From the NCBI GenBank assembly GCA_030668825.1, contig DAOVET010000008.1, forward strand, positions 1-56,316: a stretch of DNA of 56,316 nucleotides, in the 5' to 3' direction. The first letter of the stretch is position 1. Each line of letters begins with the position of its first letter. The translations under genes and the position numbers were made by a program. The notes beneath the pieces are model-generated. The model saw only the letters and a program-made list of their open reading frames with translations, did not search any database and had not been told where the DNA came from. Origin of the DNA: Candidatus Heimdallarchaeota archaeon. Lineage in GTDB: Archaea; Asgardarchaeota; Heimdallarchaeia; Heimdallarchaeales; Heimdallarchaeaceae. Positions 345 through 27,364 of this stretch are shown in pieces.

Positions 345-1634
345 ATGCCAGCTCCAGAAAATCGTCCAGTAAGTAGATTTAGAAAAAAGAGCACTTTCTA
401 TTTACTGTCATTAGCAAGTGGAATAATCACAAGTATCTATGTAGTCTTAGATGATTATGTAAATTTTGAAATGATTACAAACCCATTTGTTTTTGGAGCT
501 TTTGAAATGGTTGTAGGTTTCATTGTCACTTTTTTAGTTGTATTAGCACTCCATATACCTGGAAAAGGTAGAACAAGGCTTGGAAGAAGATTCAACTTAG
601 GATATAAGTTAGATGGAAACTTCCAGAAACTAAAGCTACCAACAGGAAAAATAGCTATTTATACACTGCTTGCAGGAATGTTTGCAACAGGGTCAACTAT
701 TCTCTATTTCTATCTAATGAGTAAAAATGGATCAGCTGTTATAATGCCTTTTAGTCAATTTGTGCTAATATACCTTTTAATAGGAGATGCAATTTCTGAT
801 AGAGAAAAACCGGTTATCGTTGAAATTCAATCAATTGCTATGATAGCTTTTGGTGTGCTAATTGCATCTATTTCAGGAATAGGTGGTGGTGGTTCCTTTA
901 CTGATTTCCTACTAAATATGTTTATGATTATAGGTCCATTTTCATTGTTTTCTGCACTCTATATTTTCTTCCAAAAGAAAGCTTTGACTACAAAGGATAA
1001 GCAAGGTAAATTGTATGATTCCATCAACTTAAGAGTTTGGACTATGTTGATAATAACTATTGGTCAAGTAATATCAGCTGCTCCAGCACTCTCAAAAGGG
1101 GGGTTTTCTGAAGTCAGCAATTCATGGAGAATAGCACTGACTCCAGTAATTTTCTCAATGTTATTGGCTTTTCTATCAATTGTTTTCTACACAAGAGCTC
1201 TTACAATGGGTAAGATGTCTATTGTCAGAGCTTTGAGTAGCGTTAGTGTTGTAACAACATTCCCCATTATTGGTATAGCTAGTATCTGGTTACCGAATAT
1301 CTTTGGTTTTGGAGGAGAAAATCTTGTGCTTGATATTGTGCTGAAACTATCAGGTTCATTTCTAATATTAATCGGAGTTATTGCTTTAGCATTATCAGAA
1401 ACCAAGAGTATACTTTTAGCGAAAGCAAAACAAGGATTTGCAATAAAAGTTGAAGAATTAACCAAAATAAAAGGAATAGAAAGTGTATCATTTATTACAG
1501 GACAATATGATCTGCTAATCAATATTAAGATGCGAAGCATAGGTAAAGCTTTCAGTTTAGTTGAAAAATCAATTGCAAAATTGCCTTGGATTGATGATGT
1601 AATAACATTTCAAATAATGAAAGAATATGAATAA
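345..1634 (+). CDS. DMT/EamA-like membrane transporter with C-terminal Lrp/AsnC (RAM) domain
   Basis: About 10 hydrophobic segments in two EamA-like repeats (LFYLM..AVIMPF..REK; VFYTRALTMGKMSIV). The last ~75 aa contain IKGIESVSFITGQYDLLINI...LPWIDDVITF, a RAM signature. Confidence 0.75.
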   Translation: MPAPENRPVSRFRKKSTFYLLSLASGIITSIYVVLDDYVNFEMITNPFVFGAFEMVVGFIVTFLVVLALHIPGKGRTRLGRRFNLGYKLDGNFQKLKLPTGKIAIYTLLAGMFATGSTILYFYLMSKNGSAVIMPFSQFVLIYLLIGDAISDREKPVIVEIQSIAMIAFGVLIASISGIGGGGSFTDFLLNMFMIIGPFSLFSALYIFFQKKALTTKDKQGKLYDSINLRVWTMLIITIGQVISAAPALSKGGFSEVSNSWRIALTPVIFSMLLAFLSIVFYTRALTMGKMSIVRALSSVSVVTTFPIIGIASIWLPNIFGFGGENLVLDIVLKLSGSFLILIGVIALALSETKSILLAKAKQGFAIKVEELTKIKGIESVSFITGQYDLLINIKMRSIGKAFSLVEKSIAKLPWIDDVITFQIMKEYE

Positions 1635-1727
1635 AAAGAAAAGAGAACTGGATTATATATAACATTCTTTCAATTTCTTATAAGAAAACTCTAAATAGTT
1701 ATTTGATTTGCTAAAAGATGAATTGTA

Positions 1728-2858
1728 ATGGAAGTTTTCGATATTCATAGTAAAAAGGGGGAAAAGGTTTTTGGTTATATTGACATGTTGGAGTATCCAC
1801 ATGGAACAAAAGAGAGATTGCCAATTTGCTTGATTGAAGGCTTAGAAGAAGGTCCTACTTTCCTTTTAACTGGTAATATTCATGGAAATGAACTTCATGG
1901 TTTGGTAACTCTTCAGGAAATAATTCAAGAAGTAGATCCTACACAAGTTAAAGGAACATTAATAATAATACCATCGTTGAATCCTGCTGGGTTGTTGGTA
2001 ATGACTCGAACACCACTTTATGTGAGTACAGATCCTAACAGACTATGGCCTGACCCAAAACCCAAGAAGAAACCTCAGTTAAAGTATGAAGATATTTATG
2101 ATGAAAATCTTGACCCAGAAAAACATCCAAACATCCAAGAGAAGTTTTACACTAAATTTGCAAAAATATTTGATCAAGCAGATTATTTCATTGATCTCCA
2201 TTGTCATGCTATACGTTCTTTACCATACTCATACCTAGACCGAGTATATTACGATGAAAAAGACAAAAATCAGAAGGAAGAATCACAAAAACTATTTGAT
2301 AAGACAAAAAAACTAGTTGAAGCATTTGGTTTTACTTTAGTGTTGGAGAGACCACCTAAATATTATTTCAAGGAAAATCTGCAAAGGTCTACTACTGGTA
2401 GCTTTGTAAATAAGTATCGGAAACCAGGATTTACCGTTGAATTGGGAGCTTCTGGCTATGTAGAGACAGACATTGTAGCCAGTGCCAAAATTGGTATCTG
2501 GAATGTATTAAAATATACTGGTATGATTGAAGGAGATTTAGTGAAAGTAACTGATTTTCCAGTGTTAGATGAAAAAATGTGGCGAGAGATTTTGATTAGA
2601 ACTTCACATTCTGGTTTCTTTATTCCTCTTGTGAAAGCTGGAGAAATCGTTGAAAAAGGAATCCCAATTTTTGAAGTTAGGGATATTTTTGGTAAGATCA
2701 AAGAAACCATTGTAGCACCAGATTATGGAGCAATTATAGGAATGTGGGATGACATCAGATGTTATCCAAATCAGGAAATTGCTGTTTTCTTAGTTGATAA
2801 CACAATAGACCTTATTTTACCTTGGGAATACGAGAAAAAAGAAGAGAAAAAGGAGTAG
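1728..2858 (+). CDS. Succinylglutamate desuccinylase/aspartoacylase family (M14-type Zn hydrolase)
   Basis: GNIHGNE, DPNR, IDLH and TVELG motifs, plus a C-terminal barrel-sandwich hybrid-like segment. Confidence 0.9.
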   Translation: MEVFDIHSKKGEKVFGYIDMLEYPHGTKERLPICLIEGLEEGPTFLLTGNIHGNELHGLVTLQEIIQEVDPTQVKGTLIIIPSLNPAGLLVMTRTPLYVSTDPNRLWPDPKPKKKPQLKYEDIYDENLDPEKHPNIQEKFYTKFAKIFDQADYFIDLHCHAIRSLPYSYLDRVYYDEKDKNQKEESQKLFDKTKKLVEAFGFTLVLERPPKYYFKENLQRSTTGSFVNKYRKPGFTVELGASGYVETDIVASAKIGIWNVLKYTGMIEGDLVKVTDFPVLDEKMWREILIRTSHSGFFIPLVKAGEIVEKGIPIFEVRDIFGKIKETIVAPDYGAIIGMWDDIRCYPNQEIAVFLVDNTIDLILPWEYEKKEEKKE

Positions 2859-19241: not shown

Positions 19242-20282
19242 TTATTTGAAAACTATATCGAGCTGAGCTTCACATTTATTACAATTTCCTTGTAAAGAGA
19301 TTCTCCTTACTTCTGTAGCTGACGCTCCTCTATAAATAAGTAATTCTCCACATTTTGGACAATAAGTATTTGATGCTTCATGATCAGGTACATCGTTTAA
19401 ATAAACGAAATCTAAGCCTACTTCCTTAGCTATTTGATAACATCTCTCTAATAATTCTGTAGTTGTGGGTTGTAATTCTTTAAGTCTATGAGCAGGGAGC
19501 AATCTAGCTAAGTGCAACGGAACAGATACTGAAAGTTCTTTTCTTATCCATTCGGCTATTTTTCTAGTTTGTTCTTCAGTATTTTCAAGCGCTTCATGGA
19601 TAACGAAATTTAGTTCGAGGAGTTTTTCTTTTTCATAAATCAATTTGATAATCTTCTTAACTTCCTCGAAAGTACCTGCATGACACTTTTGTTGGTACCC
19701 AATATCAGAAACTGATTTTATATCAATAGTAACCGCATCAACACATTCAAGAATTTCCTTAACAGGTTCTTTATTGAAATAAGCATTAGTTCTCAATAAT
19801 ACTTTTAGATTTCTCTGTTGAGCAAGAGTTGCAGTATCACGAACCCACTCAAAAGATATTAGAGGCTCAGCTTCACCAAAAGCTATAATCTTAGAACCTG
19901 ATGCCACCCCAAACATTGCAGCTTGATCAGGAGCATATTTTTTTGCACCAATTTGAGCCGGATCAATACCAATATTATCAGGCATTGCGCAATAATCACA
20001 ATCAAGATTACAATTGTATGTAGAAAATGTTTGTACTCTTGAATTTGGATAAAAATGAAATACATGTTGTTTTTCAATCATATCTATCTTCATATCAGTA
20101 TATCCATAAGTTAGCGAATACATTTTCCCTTCAAGATTTACTCGTGAAAAACATTTACCTTTCTCTCCAACTAACAAAGTACATTCTATAGGACATAAGC
20201 GACACTGAATAACTTGATTTTCTTCATCAATCACATCATAATATTCAGCTTCGTGCAGTGGAGATTGTGACATTGATTTCAT
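19242..20282 (-). CDS. Divergent AmmeMemoRadiSam-type (PflA-like) radical SAM protein
   Basis: N-terminal CRLCP..C...G.C, CNLDCDYC cluster motif, and C-terminal NTYCPKCG...CNKC. Confidence 0.85.
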   Translation of the reverse strand: MKSMSQSPLHEAEYYDVIDEENQVIQCRLCPIECTLLVGEKGKCFSRVNLEGKMYSLTYGYTDMKIDMIEKQHVFHFYPNSRVQTFSTYNCNLDCDYCAMPDNIGIDPAQIGAKKYAPDQAAMFGVASGSKIIAFGEAEPLISFEWVRDTATLAQQRNLKVLLRTNAYFNKEPVKEILECVDAVTIDIKSVSDIGYQQKCHAGTFEEVKKIIKLIYEKEKLLELNFVIHEALENTEEQTRKIAEWIRKELSVSVPLHLARLLPAHRLKELQPTTTELLERCYQIAKEVGLDFVYLNDVPDHEASNTYCPKCGELLIYRGASATEVRRISLQGNCNKCEAQLDIVFK

Positions 20283-20437: not shown

Positions 20438-21583
20438 ATGTGGACTCTTTTAAAAAGAGATACGATGACTGTTTGGCAACAAGTTGAATTGGAAAATCGT
20501 CTGGTAAATTACAGAGAAATATTTCAGGGAAAACGTATCCCCCGATACAAGCTGGCCAGATTATTTTATGTTCCTTTTAATGGTTATAAGGACAAAGATG
20601 AACTAATGAATATTCATGAACACTACCATCCAAAATTCAAGAAGTGGATAGCAGAGAAACAGCATCTTCCTCTTGAAGAGATTGAGAAAGAAATTGAAGA
20701 GCTACACAAAGCCGAGGATATTACAAGTAATAATTATCTGGAGCTGAAACTAACTATCTTGAAAGATGTTCTTTCTTCATGTGAATTCTGTGAGAACAGA
20801 TGCAGAGCCAATCGTGATGAAGGAGAAGTTGGGAAATGTGGAATTGATGATAAAGCATACGTTAGCTCAGCTTTCATTCATATGGGGGAAGAAAGTCCTA
20901 TTGTCCCTAGCGGTACAATATTCTTTTTGGGTTGTACTATGGATTGTCAGTTTTGTCAAAACTGGGATATAAGTCACGAATTTGGATTTGAGAGAATTAA
21001 GGGGAGAGGAACATCAGCCATTCAACTTGCACAACTTTATTTCACTTTGGTTAAACAGAATGCGAGAAATATCAATTTTGTTGGAGGAGAACCTACACCA
21101 AACTTACATGTTATTTTAGAATCTTTCAAACATTCACAAGTTGATGTCCCAATGTTGTGGAATAGTAATATGTATCTTACTGATATGAGCATGAAACTGA
21201 TTGCAGATCTTTTTGATATTTGGCTACCAGATATGAAATATTCTAACAATGAATGTGCAACCAAGTACTCCAAAGCACCAAAATATTGGAAGGCGCTTCA
21301 AAGAAATATGAGAATGATTGAAGACAGAGGATCTGGTGAGTATATAATTCGCCACCTAGTTATGCCAAACCACACAAAGTGTTGTTCTATTCCTATTTTG
21401 GATTGGATCAATGAAAATCTTAATACACCACTCGTAAACATTATGGGTCAATATCATCCAGATTATATTGTTCTTCAAACTGATAGATTTCCTGAGATTA
21501 AGAGAAGAGTTTCAACTACAGAAATGTATGAAGTTCGAAATCATGCTGATAAAATAGGATTATACTGGAAAAGTGTTTCTTAA
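20438..21583 (+). CDS. PflX-like radical SAM protein
   Basis: CEFCE.RC...R....G.C, HMGEE, SGTIFF.GCTMDCQFCQN, VGGEPTP, RHLVMP and NIMGQY motifs. The start may be ATG 20465. Confidence 0.9.
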   Translation: MWTLLKRDTMTVWQQVELENRLVNYREIFQGKRIPRYKLARLFYVPFNGYKDKDELMNIHEHYHPKFKKWIAEKQHLPLEEIEKEIEELHKAEDITSNNYLELKLTILKDVLSSCEFCENRCRANRDEGEVGKCGIDDKAYVSSAFIHMGEESPIVPSGTIFFLGCTMDCQFCQNWDISHEFGFERIKGRGTSAIQLAQLYFTLVKQNARNINFVGGEPTPNLHVILESFKHSQVDVPMLWNSNMYLTDMSMKLIADLFDIWLPDMKYSNNECATKYSKAPKYWKALQRNMRMIEDRGSGEYIIRHLVMPNHTKCCSIPILDWINENLNTPLVNIMGQYHPDYIVLQTDRFPEIKRRVSTTEMYEVRNHADKIGLYWKSVS

Positions 21584-21591
21584 CCTTCTTT

Positions 21592-22080
21592 TTATTGGAT
21601 GCTCATATCCCATAATAGACGCTTTGTTGTTGATCTTTCCCATTTATTTAAAGCACTTCTTGCAGCTATAGTTTCAGAGAGAAATTTATGTTGGAAATCG
21701 GCTATAAAATCTATGAGTTTCTCAATTTCAGTTATTTTGTCTAGTAATGCTTCAGATATATAAAATGTGATAGAAAATCCTGGTTCTGGTTCCTTTTGAA
21801 CAATTCCTGTAGCTTCATAAAGTGCTACACTTAGTCGTTTGAGTAACATATCGTCGAAAGGATCTCTAAGTTCAAAAATCAGTGAAATCAGACTTGAATT
21901 TCTAGTTTTCTCGATAAACCCATTTTTAAGTGGAAATTGCTTCAAATCCATATCTCTGCAATCTTTACAGATTACACAAGGATAGTTAATTTCTCTATGG
22001 GGGCAGATATACCTTTCAAGTTTCATAGCTTGCCTGATTTTTTCCTTATCTTCTAAAAACTCAGGTGAATGAGAACTCAT
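21592..22080 (-). CDS. Hypothetical protein with a Cys cluster (possible Zn site)
   Basis: CPH...PCVICKDC. ATG 22080 is preferred over TTG 22092. Confidence 0.6.
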   Translation of the reverse strand: MSSHSPEFLEDKEKIRQAMKLERYICPHREINYPCVICKDCRDMDLKQFPLKNGFIEKTRNSSLISLIFELRDPFDDMLLKRLSVALYEATGIVQKEPEPGFSITFYISEALLDKITEIEKLIDFIADFQHKFLSETIAARSALNKWERSTTKRLLWDMSIQ

Positions 22081-22129
22081 ACAAGTAACCAAAAGCGTTT
22101 TACTGTTTTATATTTACTGTTAGATGTAA

Positions 22130-22585
22130 TCATATTTTAAAAACATCCCTAGAAACCTTCTTCATCCCACCATTAGACCACTCAATTTTCTGCACTGGGA
22201 ATGCTGAAAGAATTGAGGAAATAGTCTCTTTTAGTTCCCAAAAATATCGGAAACTCTGTTCAGGTTTCTTTTCAAAAATTGTTTGTATTTCCTGATTGCT
22301 CTTCCTATAGCTTTCCAACATCATTATAGCTTTTTGTTTAGAACTTGTTCCCTTTAGTTCCTCTTTGAATGAAGTTTGCCATCTCTCAGTTCTATTTTCC
22401 TTCTCTAAAACAAATTTAAATTCTATTATCAATAGTTCTAAATCAGCTCTCAATTTCCAAAGGATATCATTTATTTTGCTGTTAGATAAACTTGATAAAT
22501 TGTCCAGTAAATCGTTAAATTTGTTTATAGAATTACTAATATTCTCTTCTAAATTTACTTCCAATTTATCTAGATTATTTGACAT
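22130..22585 (-). CDS. Hypothetical alpha-helical protein
   Basis: 151-aa ORF filling the gap, with no recognised motif. Confidence 0.6.
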   Translation of the reverse strand: MSNNLDKLEVNLEENISNSINKFNDLLDNLSSLSNSKINDILWKLRADLELLIIEFKFVLEKENRTERWQTSFKEELKGTSSKQKAIMMLESYRKSNQEIQTIFEKKPEQSFRYFWELKETISSILSAFPVQKIEWSNGGMKKVSRDVFKI

Positions 22586-22670
22586 AACATGCTTGAAATT
22601 TGAATTACATATAAAAAAATGGTGTTTGGAAACAAACGTTTAAATCAGCCTGATTTCAATCAATTTATTG

Positions 22671-23861
22671 ATGTCTGTCAAAAATCACTTTGGTATAGAT
22701 TTCATCATCAATGAAGATGAAATTTATCTAGATTCTGCAACTGTAGGAAGACTACCTCAGTCCTCAGTTTCAGTTTTAAACGATTTTTATTCCAAATATG
22801 GAGGAGGGATTAGTAGAGGTACGCATAAAATTGCAATCGATGCTAGTCGCTCACTAGAAAAATCCCGTTCAATCATCGGAGATATCTTTTCTATTGACAA
22901 GTCACGTGTATCTTTCCTACCATCAAGAGAAACTGCCTTGCTTAATGCTCTTTTTTCTCAAAGTTTCGATAAGGAAAGTGAAATTATTGCTAGCTCTCTT
23001 GATGATCACTCAGTAATAACACCTCTATTGAAGGTGAATAAATTCTTTGGAACACAGCTAAGCTTTACAGGAATTGAAGAAGAAATCGATTTATTTACTT
23101 CTATTCAAGCAAAGATTAATTCAAACACAAAAGCAATCGTTCTATCATCACTAACTCTTGGAATGGGAGTTCAAAGAGATTGGAAAAGCATATCTCAATT
23201 AGCAATTGACAATGAGTTATTGTTTATCTTGGACATGTCTAATGGCGTAGGGCACGCATCCTATAATTTTGGTGAGATTGCCCCCCATATCATAATTTCA
23301 TCTGGTAGTATAGGAGCTCTTGGTCCTCAAGGATCAGCATTTCAAATTATTTCAAATGAAATAGATAAAGATTTCAATCCTATTTTAGTTGGTGGAGGAT
23401 CTGTTGTTTCCGTAAATGAATCTGACTATAAATTATCATCAATTCCAAATAAATATGAGCCAGGATCACTAAATATTGCTTCTATTTCTGGTTTAGCAAA
23501 TAGTCTGCAACTGCTATCAGATGTTGGTTTTGAAAAAATCAGAAAACATGAACAGGAATTAAGAAAAATCCTTTATGATGGTCTCAAAAAAATTAACAAG
23601 ATAGATATTGTTGAGAAAGATGGTTTATCATATGGTCCTATTTTTTCCTTCTTTAGCGAAGAAATTGATGCTCATGATATAGCAATTATTTTAGAAGACC
23701 TGGCTAACATTTATGTTAGAAGTGGAGCACTGTGTTCTCATCTTTTTATGGATGAATTAAAGCAAGAATCACTAGTTCAAGTTTCCACTCATCTGTATAA
23801 TACAAAAAAGGATATTGTTACTTTTATAGAAACATTAGAAGCAATAATGGCAGAAATATGA
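22671..23861 (+). CDS. Cysteine desulfurase (SufS/CsdA, aminotransferase class V)-like protein lacking the PLP lysine, copy 1
   Basis: IYLDSAT, LVGGG, KYEPGS.N, VRSGALCSH and STHLYNT. The SGHKG motif reads SGSIG. Confidence 0.88.
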   Translation: MSVKNHFGIDFIINEDEIYLDSATVGRLPQSSVSVLNDFYSKYGGGISRGTHKIAIDASRSLEKSRSIIGDIFSIDKSRVSFLPSRETALLNALFSQSFDKESEIIASSLDDHSVITPLLKVNKFFGTQLSFTGIEEEIDLFTSIQAKINSNTKAIVLSSLTLGMGVQRDWKSISQLAIDNELLFILDMSNGVGHASYNFGEIAPHIIISSGSIGALGPQGSAFQIISNEIDKDFNPILVGGGSVVSVNESDYKLSSIPNKYEPGSLNIASISGLANSLQLLSDVGFEKIRKHEQELRKILYDGLKKINKIDIVEKDGLSYGPIFSFFSEEIDAHDIAIILEDLANIYVRSGALCSHLFMDELKQESLVQVSTHLYNTKKDIVTFIETLEAIMAEI

Positions 23862-24038
23862 AAGAGAAAATCATAAGTCACCTTAGCTTCTTTCTGGCAT
23901 CGCTTATGCTTTACCAAATGCCTTACGATCATCCTCTAGATTTTCCCTAATTTCTCATATTCTTAGTAGTATTCAAACTTTTTGATTTCATATCAAGGAA
24001 GATTTTAAAATCTACTATGAATAAATCTAACCGGAACC

Positions 24039-25226
24039 ATGACGACTACTACAAGATTTGGAATTGAATTTAATCTAAAGCCTGACCAAATTTATCTAGA
24101 TTCAGCTACAATTGGTAAAATTCCTGTTTCTTCTATGAAAAAAATACAGGAATATTACAAAAATGGAGGAGGGGCACCTGTTAGAGGAGTGCACAATGAA
24201 ATATCTTCTAGCAATCGTCTTCTGGAAGAAAACAGGAAATCACTTTCGAGAATATTCAATATAGAATCATCCCAAATTTCATTTTTTCCATCAAGAGAAA
24301 CGGTTCTAACAAGTGTCTTTCATTCAATACCGAATATAGGTGAAAAAAAAATTGTTACTAGTATTCTAGAGGAGCATTCTATTTTAGCTCCTGCAATAAA
24401 AGTGAACAATTCTTTTGGTACAGATATTGAATATCTAAATATTGAAGATGAAACAACCCTTCTTGAGAAAATTAGTGAAAAAATACATTCCCCCAAAGAC
24501 ATTGTACTTCTTTCTTCTTTAACAGCTACTAATGGTGTGAAGAGAGAATGGAATAAAATAGCTAAAATCTGTAAAGAAGTGGATGCCACATTCATTCTAG
24601 ATATTAGTTATTCAGTGGGTCATGAAGAGATTATGTTTGATAAAGAAACACCAGATATAGTTGTATCTTCAGGATGCATTGGTGCTTTAGGTCCTGCAGG
24701 TACAGCATTCCAGATTACCAATAATGAAATCTATAATAAAATGGATCCTTTAATTGTTGGAGGTGGCTCAATAATTGCACTTGAAGAATATTCTTATCTC
24801 CTTAATTCTTCAGGTTCGAAGTTTGAAACAGGAATAATTAATGTTGCCAATATAAATGCAATGACTAATAGTTTAGAACTATTATCGAATTTTGGGTTAT
24901 CAAAAATTAAGGAACATGAAAAAAAATTACATTCTAAGCTAAGAACTGGTTTAGAAAACATTCCTTCTATTAAGTTAAACAAAATTGAAGGAGCTGAATA
25001 TGGACCAATTTTATCATTTGGCAGTGAAAAAGTTGAAGCACACGATTTGGCTATGGTTCTAGATGATATGAAAAATATACAAATAAGAAGTGGGGCTTTG
25101 TGTTCTCACTTGTATATGTATGAACTTAAATTCAATGACATAGTAAGAGTATCGACTCATCTTTACAATACTGAGGATGAAATACTTATTTTTCTGGAAA
25201 CAGTTGATTCTTTTATAAGAACATAA
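24039..25226 (+). CDS. Cysteine desulfurase-like protein lacking the PLP lysine, copy 2
   Basis: IYLDSAT, IVGGG, KFETG, IRSGALCSH and RVSTHLYNT. The SGHKG motif reads SGCIG. It is collinear with copy 1. Confidence 0.88.
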   Translation: MTTTTRFGIEFNLKPDQIYLDSATIGKIPVSSMKKIQEYYKNGGGAPVRGVHNEISSSNRLLEENRKSLSRIFNIESSQISFFPSRETVLTSVFHSIPNIGEKKIVTSILEEHSILAPAIKVNNSFGTDIEYLNIEDETTLLEKISEKIHSPKDIVLLSSLTATNGVKREWNKIAKICKEVDATFILDISYSVGHEEIMFDKETPDIVVSSGCIGALGPAGTAFQITNNEIYNKMDPLIVGGGSIIALEEYSYLLNSSGSKFETGIINVANINAMTNSLELLSNFGLSKIKEHEKKLHSKLRTGLENIPSIKLNKIEGAEYGPILSFGSEKVEAHDLAMVLDDMKNIQIRSGALCSHLYMYELKFNDIVRVSTHLYNTEDEILIFLETVDSFIRT

Positions 25227-25297
25227 TTTGTGTGTAAATTAAAAAAGATTACATGGAAAGAATTAAAAGAAAGTTAGATTGTTTTTATCTAACTCTA

Positions 25298-25371
25298 GCA
25301 CGCATAGTCTAGTGGTAGGACTCAGCCCTCCCACGGCTGAAACCCGAGTTCGAATCCCGGTGCGTGCACCA
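25298..25371 (+). tRNA. tRNA-Gly (anticodon CCC), intronless, with encoded 3' CCA
   Basis: Acceptor stem GCACGCA/TGCGTGC, D arm GTCT-AGTGGTA-GGAC, anticodon arm CAGCC-CTCCCAC-GGCTG (CCC at 25330-25332), T loop TTCGAAT, discriminator A, then CCA at 25369-25371. Confidence 0.96.
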
Positions 25372-25473
25372 TGATTTTTTTACAAAGCGTGGATTTGTTA
25401 ATGTTTATTTTGACACAATAGACTAACTTTTAAAAGACAATTTACTATTATTCATTGAACAGAAGGTGTAAAT

Positions 25474-25701
25474 ATGGCGAGATGCCCTGATTGTGGTGGC
25501 GAAGTAAAATATAAGGCTCCTTTTATGGTTTGCTTAGATTGTGGTCTTTCTTTCAAGAGAGGAGAGCTCGATAAAGTTAAAACTACAGTTCGTGATGAAC
25601 AGAAGAAAATTGTTGGGGAAACTACTGAAGAAATAGAAAGAAAAGATAGAGAACGTAAAAGAGCATATCATGACTGGTATATGAAAAAGGAGGAAAAATA
25701 G
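25474..25701 (+). CDS. Small Zn-ribbon protein
   Basis: CPDCGG...VCLDCG with a charged helical tail. AGGTG lies upstream of the ATG. Confidence 0.8.
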   Translation: MARCPDCGGEVKYKAPFMVCLDCGLSFKRGELDKVKTTVRDEQKKIVGETTEEIERKDRERKRAYHDWYMKKEEK

Positions 25702-25959
25702 ATGACTATTATAGCTCAACACATGAAATGCGATTTCAGAGATCGCTGTGCCTCCTGTAGTAAATATTTATGGTCACCTAAACAAACAGGAAGATATTTC
25801 TATTGTAGAGATTGTAAATCTGATATTCTCTGTGACCGTGGTTTAATTCAGAACTTTTCTACAGACAGAGATGGAATTATCAAAAAGAAAAATCTCTGTA
25901 TGAAATGCAACAACGAAGTTGTGGAGAAAATGTGGCCTGAAGAAGCTTTAGAGTTATAA
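25702..25959 (+). CDS. Small Cys-rich Zn-finger protein
   Basis: Eight Cys including three CxxC pairs. It abuts the upstream stop codon. Confidence 0.75.
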   Translation: MTIIAQHMKCDFRDRCASCSKYLWSPKQTGRYFYCRDCKSDILCDRGLIQNFSTDRDGIIKKKNLCMKCNNEVVEKMWPEEALEL

Positions 25960-25981: not shown

Positions 25982-27364
25982 CTACTCGATAATGACATAT
26001 AAACCAGGATCATCCATTATGTAAATTAGTTCATCTGGATTTTTAGACATATATTTTGAAATTTCTCTTCTTAATGTGTCTACAGGAGATTCTTCTGGTC
26101 TTTTTATAGGATCAACTCGATAGTAATTTCTTAATTGTTCAGCATCCCAATCTGAGATCATTTTCAGATTTCCTTCTCCAATCATCTTTATTATTCTCAT
26201 GGTATCTACAGGTTTCTGGTTTCCTATTTTGAATGTCTCAGTTGTACAGTAATTATCCAAAACATACTCAAGAGCTTCTTGGAGAGGCATATCACCTGTT
26301 TCTTTCATTACTTGTTCGTAATTGGCATTGCCTATACCATCCGGAAGAGGTGCAACCGCTAGAATTTCTCCAGTACCATCTTGTTTAACCGCATGGAATG
26401 CTGCGTGTATTCCCTTACCAGCTTGATAGAGATTAATCCCCCAGCTTTGCATCCCGCTAACAACTATTCCTGCAGCTTTAGGTAATCGTAAAGTTCTCAT
26501 CTTAACAATATGTTGTTTTGCTTCATCATGTAATTCTACCAAATCTCCAGTACAAATATAGACTATTTTTCCTTCTGTTACAATAGTATCAATACCAAAA
26601 ATAGTTACTTTCGCTTTTAGAATGTTGACCATATTTTTAATATCAGTAATTACTGGATTTTCTTTTGTTCCTCCTAGTTTGCAACCAGGTACGAAGCCTA
26701 ATTTTCTGTCAAACATTTTAGGATGGTTTTGCCTTACAGTGTCCCTACTAGCAATCCCTGGACATATTTCTTTAATAGTTCCCGCTACACCAGCGAAATA
26801 GTGTAATTCACTATCAGTTATTGGAACTAATATTGATGCTTCAAAAGCTAATTTATCGAACTCCATGGGAGTTCCAGCATCACTTTCACCAATATAGACT
26901 CCTTCAATATCACAATCATGTGAAACTATTAGTGATCTATATTCTTCATAGATTTGTTCTCCAACTATCTTTGCATATTCAGACTCCTTTGGAAGTCTAT
27001 GAGTACCTGTAGCTATTAGAACTATAATATCCTCTTTCAAAACATCTAGAGAAAGGACTTTTTCAATCATTATAGGTAAAATTATTTTGGTATGAATATT
27101 TGGTCTTGTGTAATCATCAACTACAAAAACAATAGGTTTACCATTTTGGTATTTCTGTTCAACAAGCTTATCAAAGGAGAGATCATATCCCAATGGATCG
27201 GATAATTTTCTCAGTAAAGCTTCCTTAACTGTTCCTTCAAACATTGGGATTTTAGAAAATTCTGGTGGATGTAAAAACTTAGTTTGATCTTTATATTGAC
27301 TTGGTACAAATCCATTAATTATTTCTGAACCCCAAGATATTGGTGTATCCAAATAATCTGTCAT
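25982..27364 (-). CDS. larA: Nickel-pincer-dependent lactate racemase LarA family (2-hydroxyacid racemase/epimerase)
   Basis: D.TRP, ATGTHR, SHD, HYFAG..G..K...PG, NH and NLYQ..KG motifs. The substrate is not assignable from sequence by eye. Confidence 0.85.
   Translation of the reverse strand: MTDYLDTPISWGSEIINGFVPSQYKDQTKFLHPPEFSKIPMFEGTVKEALLRKLSDPLGYDLSFDKLVEQKYQNGKPIVFVVDDYTRPNIHTKIILPIMIEKVLSLDVLKEDIIVLIATGTHRLPKESEYAKIVGEQIYEEYRSLIVSHDCDIEGVYIGESDAGTPMEFDKLAFEASILVPITDSELHYFAGVAGTIKEICPGIASRDTVRQNHPKMFDRKLGFVPGCKLGGTKENPVITDIKNMVNILKAKVTIFGIDTIVTEGKIVYICTGDLVELHDEAKQHIVKMRTLRLPKAAGIVVSGMQSWGINLYQAGKGIHAAFHAVKQDGTGEILAVAPLPDGIGNANYEQVMKETGDMPLQEALEYVLDNYCTTETFKIGNQKPVDTMRIIKMIGEGNLKMISDWDAEQLRNYYRVDPIKRPEESPVDTLRREISKYMSKNPDELIYIMDDPGLYVIIE

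Follow-up and report, generated by a model that had tools for sequence, protein, structure and literature searches.

What is left for a cysteine desulfurase homolog to do when the lysine that should hold its cofactor has been replaced? The question is raised by two neighbouring genes on contig DAOVET010000008.1 of Candidatus Heimdallarchaeota archaeon (GenBank assembly GCA_030668825.1). The stretch of DNA that was analysed, positions 1 to 56,316 of this contig, is referred to at its full length of 56,316 nucleotides as the window; its G+C content is about 33%. Two consecutive open reading frames (ORFs) encode SufS-like proteins, here called paralogs A and B, which share 45% identity across 393 residues. 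Both carry isoleucine at the site of the lysine that forms the Schiff base with pyridoxal 5'-phosphate (PLP), and both retain the cysteine of the short loop further along the chain. The nearest homologs of both ORFs are labelled Heimdallarchaeota, and the related loci include complete Ca. Heimdallarchaeum genomes. The pair and its key sites are as follows.

22671..23861, plus strand: SufS-like paralog A, ORF of 396 amino acids from the ATG at 22671, the length of most homologs
23310..23312, plus strand: Lys-site codon of A, ATA, Ile215, in SGSIGALGP
23718..23744, plus strand: Cys loop of A, RSGALCSHL, Arg351-Leu359, with Cys356 at 23733-23735
23862..24038, plus strand: spacer between A and B, 177 bp
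24039..25226, plus strand: SufS-like paralog B, ORF of 395 amino acids
24678..24680, plus strand: Lys-site codon of B, ATT, Ile214, in SGCIGALGP
25086..25112, plus strand: Cys loop of B, RSGALCSHL, Arg350-Leu358, with Cys355 at 25101-25103

The ORF of paralog A is listed from a TTG at 22668 (397 amino acids), the ATG being the codon right after it, and the residues of A are numbered from 22668.

The lysine site and the cysteine loop

An initial annotation of this DNA had reported isoleucine at the lysine site of both copies (ATA at 23310-23312, ATT at 24678-24680), and this is correct to the base. The other motifs that it named, with their coordinates, are likewise present in the translations, which hold LDDHS in A and LEEHS in B, LDMSN in A and LDISY in B, and an identical RSGALCSHL in the two. 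When aligned with HMMER to the desulfurase 5b7s, both isoleucines fall under the Lys of 'sgHKgpmgp', DDH (A) and EEH (B) lie opposite EHH, DMSN (A) and DISY (B) opposite DAAQ, and GALC opposite GHHC. The class II consensus for the Cys loop is RxGHHCA. Paralogs A and B keep its Arg, Gly and Cys with their spacing, but the His-His pair has become Ala-Leu; the same three residues are found in all 72 Lys-less sequences compared below (72/72), again with the spacing retained. According to PMC8300815, the consensus of this loop identifies the class to which a desulfurase belongs.

Contigs from DNA runs of three other studies cover both Ile codons and carry them unchanged, so the codons are not a sequencing error; the annotation had argued the same from the use of different Ile codons in two diverged copies. 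Record 12 of X3 (21500-24025) differs from the window solely at 22492, 23636 and 23953, none of them near 23310, and record 19 of X3 (24189-25400) solely at 24881 and 25297, none near 24678. Record 22 of X9 (22979-23430) shows zero differences from the window. One run labelled RNA-Seq, X20, was flagged as probably DNA and yielded three short contigs.

The survey of homologs that the annotation had proposed, for loss of Lys with retention of Cys, gave a clear outcome. Lys is present at the site in 0 of the 100 closest homologs (P0001-P0100), where I, V, S, N, L, H, A, M, F and one R are found instead, and the loop Cys is present in 99 of the 100, the remaining one being a fragment. With such counts, the Lys-less, Cys-bearing state cannot be put down to chance.

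Fold and class

Both proteins show the class-V aminotransferase fold over its full length, matching Pfam Aminotran_5 (PF00266) with 188.7 bits (A) and 203.6 bits (B) at profile positions 1-369 of 371. The top NCBIfam model is SufS, TIGR01979, at 190.8 bits for A and 190.5 bits for B; these scores are far below its cut-off of 475.1, which places both proteins outside the curated family. The nearest solved relative is 5b7s, the type II desulfurase of Thermococcus onnurineus (HMMER E-values 4.5e-45 for A and 8.9e-41 for B). Each paralog matched 45 desulfurase sequences in the PDB, and among the matches listed the sole type I entry is 1ecx, with E-values of 4.9e-5 and 2.6e-6 in the A and B searches. 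PMC8300815 and PMC8918507 give a beta-hairpin insertion after the Lys site as a class II feature. This insertion is present in A and B, whose alignments with 5b7s are ungapped from the Lys site, across the hairpin region, as far as the FExG motif.

The PLP pocket, column by column

To place the lysine in context, 48 sequences of the Heimdall clade (21 A, 19 B, the rest single-copy) and 24 wider Lys-less sequences were compared with 122 canonical ones. The canonical rows were chosen for HK and RxGxxC, so that Lys in 122/122 of them is there by construction, which is not the case for the other columns. The roles of the residues are presumed to be those seen in the E. coli and B. subtilis SufS structures.

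Phosphate-binding Thr: canonical 113/122; Heimdall clade, Glu in 48/48
Middle His of EHH: canonical 122/122; Heimdall clade, Asp or Glu in 48/48
Asn of S-N-x-x-G: canonical 119/122; Leu in A 21/21, other residues in B and single-copy lineages, Asn never among the commonest listed
Gln of DxAQ: canonical 120/122; Heimdall clade, N, Y, H, Q, K or R
His of HK: canonical 121/122; Heimdall clade, variable, with Cys in 17/19 B rows (Cys213 of B, the residue preceding Ile214)
His before the loop Cys: canonical 101/122; Heimdall clade, Leu in 45/48
Substrate-carboxylate Arg: canonical 122/122; Gln in A 21/21, Arg retained in B 19/19

At the Schiff-base column itself, Lys occurs in 0/48 rows of the Heimdall clade. 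Two residues of the old site are retained by both paralogs, the Asp that we take to be the partner of the PLP pyridine nitrogen in canonical enzymes (47/48) and the Ser of SGHK (43/48); of the other contacts to PLP or substrate, A retains none and B only the Arg. A displaced lysine, which the annotation had named as one observation that would speak against it, is not apparent from the sequences, since no column of the 48 Heimdall rows has a strictly conserved Lys. The best is that of Lys262 of A (44/48), where canonical enzymes, too, have either Lys or Arg. Other positions have become fixed or nearly so: a His stands two residues after the Cys in 45/48 rows, and Thr-His follows the Arg/Gln-x-Ser motif in 48/48. 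The position corresponding to Thr278 of E. coli SufS, presumably the Thr that reaches into the pocket of the partner subunit in canonical dimers, is Ser or Thr in 16/21 A rows and Ile or Leu in 19/19 B rows.

As judged from these residues, A and B are unable to bind PLP covalently, and very probably bind no PLP at all. The claim that neither can form the Lys-PLP aldimine is upheld, and the remainder of the PLP pocket has been dismantled too.

Origin and distribution of the Lys-less clade

A tree of 97 rows (quick IQ-TREE run, unrooted) comprised 46 Heimdall ORFs with a minimum length of 330 residues, 26 distant Lys-less proteins, 24 canonical proteins and the SufS of the genome itself. The 24 canonical rows were picked by hand from about 130, and as the groups were chosen by trait, the result lies in the single branch between them and not in the counts. 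This branch, with a support of 100 in the Shimodaira-Hasegawa-like approximate likelihood ratio test (SH-aLRT), separates the 25 canonical from the 72 Lys-less rows, so that one change of state explains the loss of Lys. Support is 99 for the Heimdall clade, 98 for the A clade (21 rows) and 99 for the B clade (19 rows). Single-copy lineages, Heimdallarchaeum included, branch outside the A and B clades but within the Heimdall clade. It follows that the duplication took place inside Heimdallarchaeia and later than the loss of Lys; being unrooted, the tree does not fix the basal order. The initial annotation had dated the change to before the duplication, which holds for the loss of Lys but need not hold for Ile, as the column varies: I13/S5/N3 among the A rows, I12/M4/S2/V1 among the B rows and V5/I2/L1 where the gene is single-copy.

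A search of representative proteins with B returned distant relatives, 22-34% identical to A, that are without His-Lys and have the loop RSGx[LMI]C[SAT], the tail Q-x-S-x-H, and Gln at the position of the substrate Arg. These wider Asgard members fall on the same side of the SH-aLRT-100 branch as A and B, with which they share the loss of HK and the form of both the loop and the tail. They are single-copy at the loci seen. In the 24 wider rows, the His of EHH is kept in 14 and the Gln of DxAQ is Arg in 16; P0143 is the one among them with Lys at the aligned column.

A profile of the Lys-less proteins matched strongly in numerous Asgard families, but high scores are also reached by canonical SufS. 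For example, the high-scoring loci L119-L121, L123, L125 and L126 have the canonical Cys loop RSG[LR]HCA and the Arg tail RASxY. Because bit score fails to separate the two kinds, no phylum-wide count of Lys-less genes is given. Twenty loci were inspected, of which 13 proved to be Lys-less and 6 canonical SufS, with one unclassified (L118, family f20, combining RSGFLCA with an Arg tail). The 13 Lys-less loci all lie outside coded family f1, in families f2, f3, f4, f5, f15, f27, f30, f31 and f33. Nine of 25 distant representatives share 49% identity or more with one of these Asgard-locus proteins. The two that carry a source name are labelled Promethearchaeota and Candidatus Ranarchaeia, the latter being placed in the Asgard kingdom by NCBI. 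No non-Asgard member was seen among the representatives, most of the distant ones carrying no source name. The loss of Lys is a trait of an Asgard clade that extends over many families, and not an oddity of one genome.

Thirty-four bacterial loci (L043-L076) were considered as family members and rejected, as none has the Cys-loop signature of the family. HK occurs in 17 of them and RxGxxC in only seven, namely six with RAGNVCF and no HK, and L043 with RTGAHCV and HK.

Other sulfur machinery in the genome

The genome, which is 90.6% complete, also encodes an intact canonical SufS, on contig C16, with EHH, DEAQ, HK, RSGNMC and RAS. The five other Asgard genomes that were checked, three of which consist of a single contig, all have an intact SufS (5/5), which makes 6/6 overall. 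The Lys-less pair is therefore an addition to a working desulfurase and not a replacement for it. Contig C74 carries one SufB-like gene preceded by a gene for an ATP-binding cassette (ABC) ATPase, making up a SufC-SufB pair; A and B are not encoded beside these genes.

The genome has a single NifU_N (IscU) match, on contig C90 (locus L004), where an IscS-like gene (1432-2643, minus strand) is directly followed by IscU (905-1417, minus strand). In the PDB, this IscS-like protein comes closest to A. fulgidus IscS, matching 4r5f and 4eb5 with E-values of about 1e-80. Its SSGSAC loop is retained and Arg stands at the Asp199/Lys column, so that the genome holds two kinds of Lys-less desulfurase. 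Among the C90-type IscS proteins of four other Heimdall genomes, this column reads K, R, K and K, the His before it being lost in every case.

A proposed function

Our preferred reading, put forward tentatively and on sequence grounds, is that A and B serve as a PLP-free sulfur relay or iron-sulfur (Fe-S) helper, using the loop Cys and acting as an A:B heterodimer in the Heimdall lineage. Their ancestor would have been a type II (SufS-type) cysteine desulfurase, of which A and B are the presumed PLP-free descendants. As the Schiff-base Lys, the stacking and catalytic His, the phosphate Thr, and the cofactor Asn and Gln have all been replaced, they would no longer be able to make persulfide from free cysteine. 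What selection has kept most strictly is the Cys loop (RSGALCSH), along with the fold and a dimer-type architecture, and it is for this reason that we read them as proteins that probably handle sulfur without catalysis. The Cys of the loop would take up sulfane sulfur and hand it on, the source being either the intact SufS of the genome or environmental sulfide or polysulfide; alternatively, it might be a ligand of a nascent Fe-S cluster on a scaffold, a role for which the Lys-less type I IscS of A. fulgidus offers a proposed precedent.

A heterodimer would have two unequal pockets, and one that combines the Arg of B with the Ser/Thr of A could be formed only in the A:B dimer. Besides this complementarity, the adjacency of the genes hints at such an arrangement: A and B are directly adjacent in 19 of 33 loci, the locus set consisting of 32 public Heimdall loci and the window.

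Several points weigh against this proposal. The case for a heterodimer draws on adjacency, two alignment columns and a presumed structural role in canonical dimers, and in basal lineages and genomes with a single copy or with separated copies a homodimer must be viable too. The Asp and Ser that persist at the former PLP site leave room for a small ligand. No gene for a sulfur acceptor or scaffold is kept as a neighbour across the 33 Heimdall loci or the 13 Lys-less loci of other families, and SufE was not found in the 90.6%-complete genome. Since the sole IscU adjoins its own Lys-less IscS-like gene, a role of the A. fulgidus type already has a dedicated gene pair.

Selection and alternative explanations

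Could A and B simply be decaying relics without function? This is highly improbable. They have lost their catalytic residues, and their ratios of nonsynonymous to synonymous substitution (dN/dS) against the orthologs in L011-L017, 0.105-0.223 in the 7 pairs for A and 0.109-0.191 in the 6 pairs for B, are somewhat above those of neighbours such as the radical S-adenosylmethionine (SAM) gene (0.02-0.08) or LonB (0.03-0.12). However, with values of 0.10-0.22 in 13 of 13 comparisons, A and B are under purifying selection, somewhat weaker than that on their neighbours (0.02-0.14) except for the adjacent gene p151 (0.14-0.29). Their frames are intact and the clade occurs in many Asgard families; A is 40-91% identical to its counterparts at the Heimdall loci, and 22 aligned sequences have 62 invariant columns. 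Only a few profile matches contain single in-frame stops. Such stops (TAA, TGA) were seen in the family matches G030:C157:2605-3786 and G020:C82:3-881, from genomes of the same genus, and may be assembly errors or real breaks.

Other explanations grant the pair a function and differ as to what occupies the old pocket or what the proteins act upon. Regulation of the active SufS by the A/B pair, which would throttle sulfur mobilisation through mixed dimers or by competing for the sulfur acceptor, seems a rather remote prospect. An intact SufS does occur alongside the Lys-less gene in 6/6 genomes, and a His lies 19-20 residues before the Cys in 21/21 A and 18/19 B rows, the spacing of His342 in B. 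subtilis SufS, where the genome's own active SufS has Asn. In PMC8918507, His342 of B. subtilis SufS is described as swapping into the zinc site of SufU. Such a His is also present in 87/122 canonical rows, though, and mixed dimers are unlikely because the intact SufS is separated from A and B by the branch with support of 100; it is also encoded on another contig. Improbable as well, if somewhat less so, is that A and B bind PLP, pyridoxamine 5'-phosphate (PMP) or a related ligand non-covalently and either catalyse with the aid of another base or act as metabolite sensors. The conserved Asp and Ser of the old site and the Arg of B would be consistent with this, as would A. fulgidus IscS, which is Lys-less and still holds PMP (PMC8918507). 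Against it, a phosphate should be repelled by the Glu that invariably replaces the phosphate-binding Thr, Asp or Glu stands throughout in place of the stacking His, the HK His has gone together with the Asn and the Gln, there is no conserved Lys anywhere in the 48 rows, and scores of about 190 bits contrast with the SufS cut-off of 475. The pocket may instead have been rebuilt as an acidic site for a cation or metal, making A and B a chaperone or sensor for iron, zinc or another metal, or the holder of a cluster; this is unlikely, yet of these explanations it is the one to be taken most seriously. The candidate residues are Glu88, Asp/Glu113, Asp189, His114, His196, His358, His375 and Cys356, with Cys213 in addition in B, and by homology to the PLP contacts of canonical SufS we take them to be grouped around one pocket. 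The change from Thr to Glu and that from His to Asp/Glu are each seen in 48/48 rows, and the retained Asp, the His after the Cys, the Thr-His pair and the Cys at the HK-His of B all fit such a site. The His after RxS is not specific, however, being present in 12/122 canonical rows and in 5b7s, and the wider Lys-less clade is without the Glu (D9/S6/T3 and others). A metal site would overlap with the proposed sulfur relay and does not exclude it.

There is also a bolder scheme, which we consider distinctly doubtful: an Asgard-wide class of cofactor-less SufS, in which the PLP pocket has turned into an acidic metal or cluster site lined by His and Cys, and in which, following the duplication in Heimdallarchaeia, an asymmetric A:B heterodimer has a composite pocket re-specialised for a carboxylate-bearing ligand. 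That pocket would be made up of Arg370 and Cys213 from B and Ser/Thr267 from A. If true, the archaea most closely related to eukaryotes would possess a new kind of chaperone for Fe-S clusters or sulfur, one using sulfide and not cysteine.

Relation to known systems

With SufS and CsdA (5b7s; B. subtilis SufS, 5xt5; E. coli SufS, 1jf9), A and B have in common the full-length fold, the short Arg-x-Gly-x-x-Cys loop, the ungapped region after the Lys site and the C-terminal S-x-x-x-Y-N motif. They differ in being without the Schiff-base Lys, the phosphate Thr, the stacking His, the Asn, the Gln and the His-His of the loop. To our knowledge, the sole 'dead' desulfurase described so far is the type I IscS of A. 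fulgidus (4hvk, 4eb5, 4r5f), an 'inactive cysteine desulfurase paralog' that, like A and B, has lost the Lys and kept the Cys. As described in PMC8918507, it has Asp at the Lys site, is inactive, holds PMP and is paired with IscU; its Cys has been proposed as a ligand of a [2Fe-2S] cluster, with sulfide as the source of sulfur. By their sequences, A and B appear to be of type II with the pocket mostly lost, in contrast to the type I, PMP/PLP-binding and IscU-paired A. fulgidus protein with its SSGSAC loop. Unlike the latter, they are duplicated, have no IscU neighbour, and belong to a clade that spans many Asgard families.

A full-text literature search, with subscription journals outside its coverage, found no published description or name for a Lys-less, SufS-like clade, in line with the suggestion of the initial annotation that the family is possibly undescribed. 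The pair may represent a second, independent case of a dead desulfurase, this time of type II, older, more thoroughly stripped, and conserved across many Asgard families. The source names of the homologs, 'aminotransferase class V-fold PLP-dependent enzyme' and 'cysteine desulfurase/selenocysteine lyase', would be the wrong functional labels for the clade. A and B bear on how archaea of sulfide-rich sediments supply sulfur to Fe-S clusters and thio-cofactors. One genome combines A and B with an intact SufS, a minimal SufC-SufB and an IscS-IscU of the A. fulgidus type, and so poses the question of what a desulfurase fold can do when its Cys loop is all that remains. The tree with its single branch, the comparison of the pocket by columns and the other sulfur machinery of the genome are new here, as are the absence of a conserved Lys, the selection figures, the evidence from independent DNA runs and a link, limited to one family, with an ARPC4-like gene (see below).

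Genomic neighbourhood

Among the loci in which A and B are not directly adjacent, five ORFs sit between them in L018, from a Heimdall metagenome-assembled genome, and the copies are apart in two genomes (L030/L035 and L031/L037). Four loci have one copy (L038, L040, L041 and L042), and the remaining loci are cut by contig ends. Most loci show a broad synteny that takes in a Lon protease, two radical-SAM genes, a LarA-like gene and a major facilitator superfamily (MFS) transporter; it is broken in L038 and L040-L042. The neighbours in the window are listed here.

19242-20282, minus strand: radical-SAM gene 1, with a C-terminal match to a small zinc finger below the Pfam cut-off
20438-21583, plus strand: radical-SAM gene 2, divergent from gene 1
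21592-22092, minus strand: ARPC4-like gene (Pfam ARPC4, E-value 1e-7)
22130-22585, minus strand: p151, a helical protein of 151 residues (model pLDDT, the predicted local distance difference test, 88), upstream of the ARPC4-like gene and divergent from A
25474-25701, plus strand: 75-residue ORF
25702-25959, plus strand: 85-residue Cys-rich protein
25982-27364, minus strand: LarA-like gene, downstream of B (lactate racemase N-terminal domain, E-value 1.2e-36)

Both radical-SAM genes are syntenic with the A/B pair in most Heimdall loci, and the 75- and 85-residue ORFs each accompany the LarA-like gene in about 20 loci. NifU_N (IscU) is absent from the seven flanking ORFs that were scanned with Pfam.

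Of the neighbours, only the pair p151 and ARPC4-like, divergent from A, is found upstream in all 26 loci that have upstream DNA; of the other 7 of the 33, 5 are cut by contig ends and 2 are displaced B copies. A model of the ARPC4-like protein matches chain F of the Arp2/3 complex, 2p9p_F, with an E-value of 4.5e-6 and a template modelling (TM) score of 0.60. It has an additional N-terminal, invariant Cys motif, CP-x7-C-x2-C-x2-C, which could hold zinc or a cluster, and with a dN/dS of 0.02-0.09 its conservation is very strong. Of the 71 Asgard genomes sampled, 33 carry ARPC4-like genes, which lie at a distance from the SufS-like gene where both can be placed, and neither an ARPC4-like nor a p151 neighbour is present in any of the 13 Lys-less loci outside f1. 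The link of these two genes to the pair is confined to family f1 and counts as weak evidence. A prediction of a complex of A, B and the ARPC4-like protein scored 0.00, which weighs neither for nor against binding. For p151, there was no match in Pfam, in Foldseek at E-values up to 0.001, or in the Atlas, and VIA-align returned generic helical bundles only (best Z 8.4).

In the Lys-less loci examined outside f1 there is no informative conserved neighbour; GlmS-like and other genes are present, and in 4 of these loci the gene 3' of the Lys-less copy is presumably endonuclease V-like, as judged from a motif of such enzymes.

Upstream of A, TTTAAAT is found at 22638-22646, about 25-30 bp 5' of the ATG, and the spacer between the two genes contains a TTTTAAAA stretch about 30 bp 5' of the ATG of B. 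Both were read by eye in an AT-rich genome, and are possible candidates for archaeal TATA boxes.

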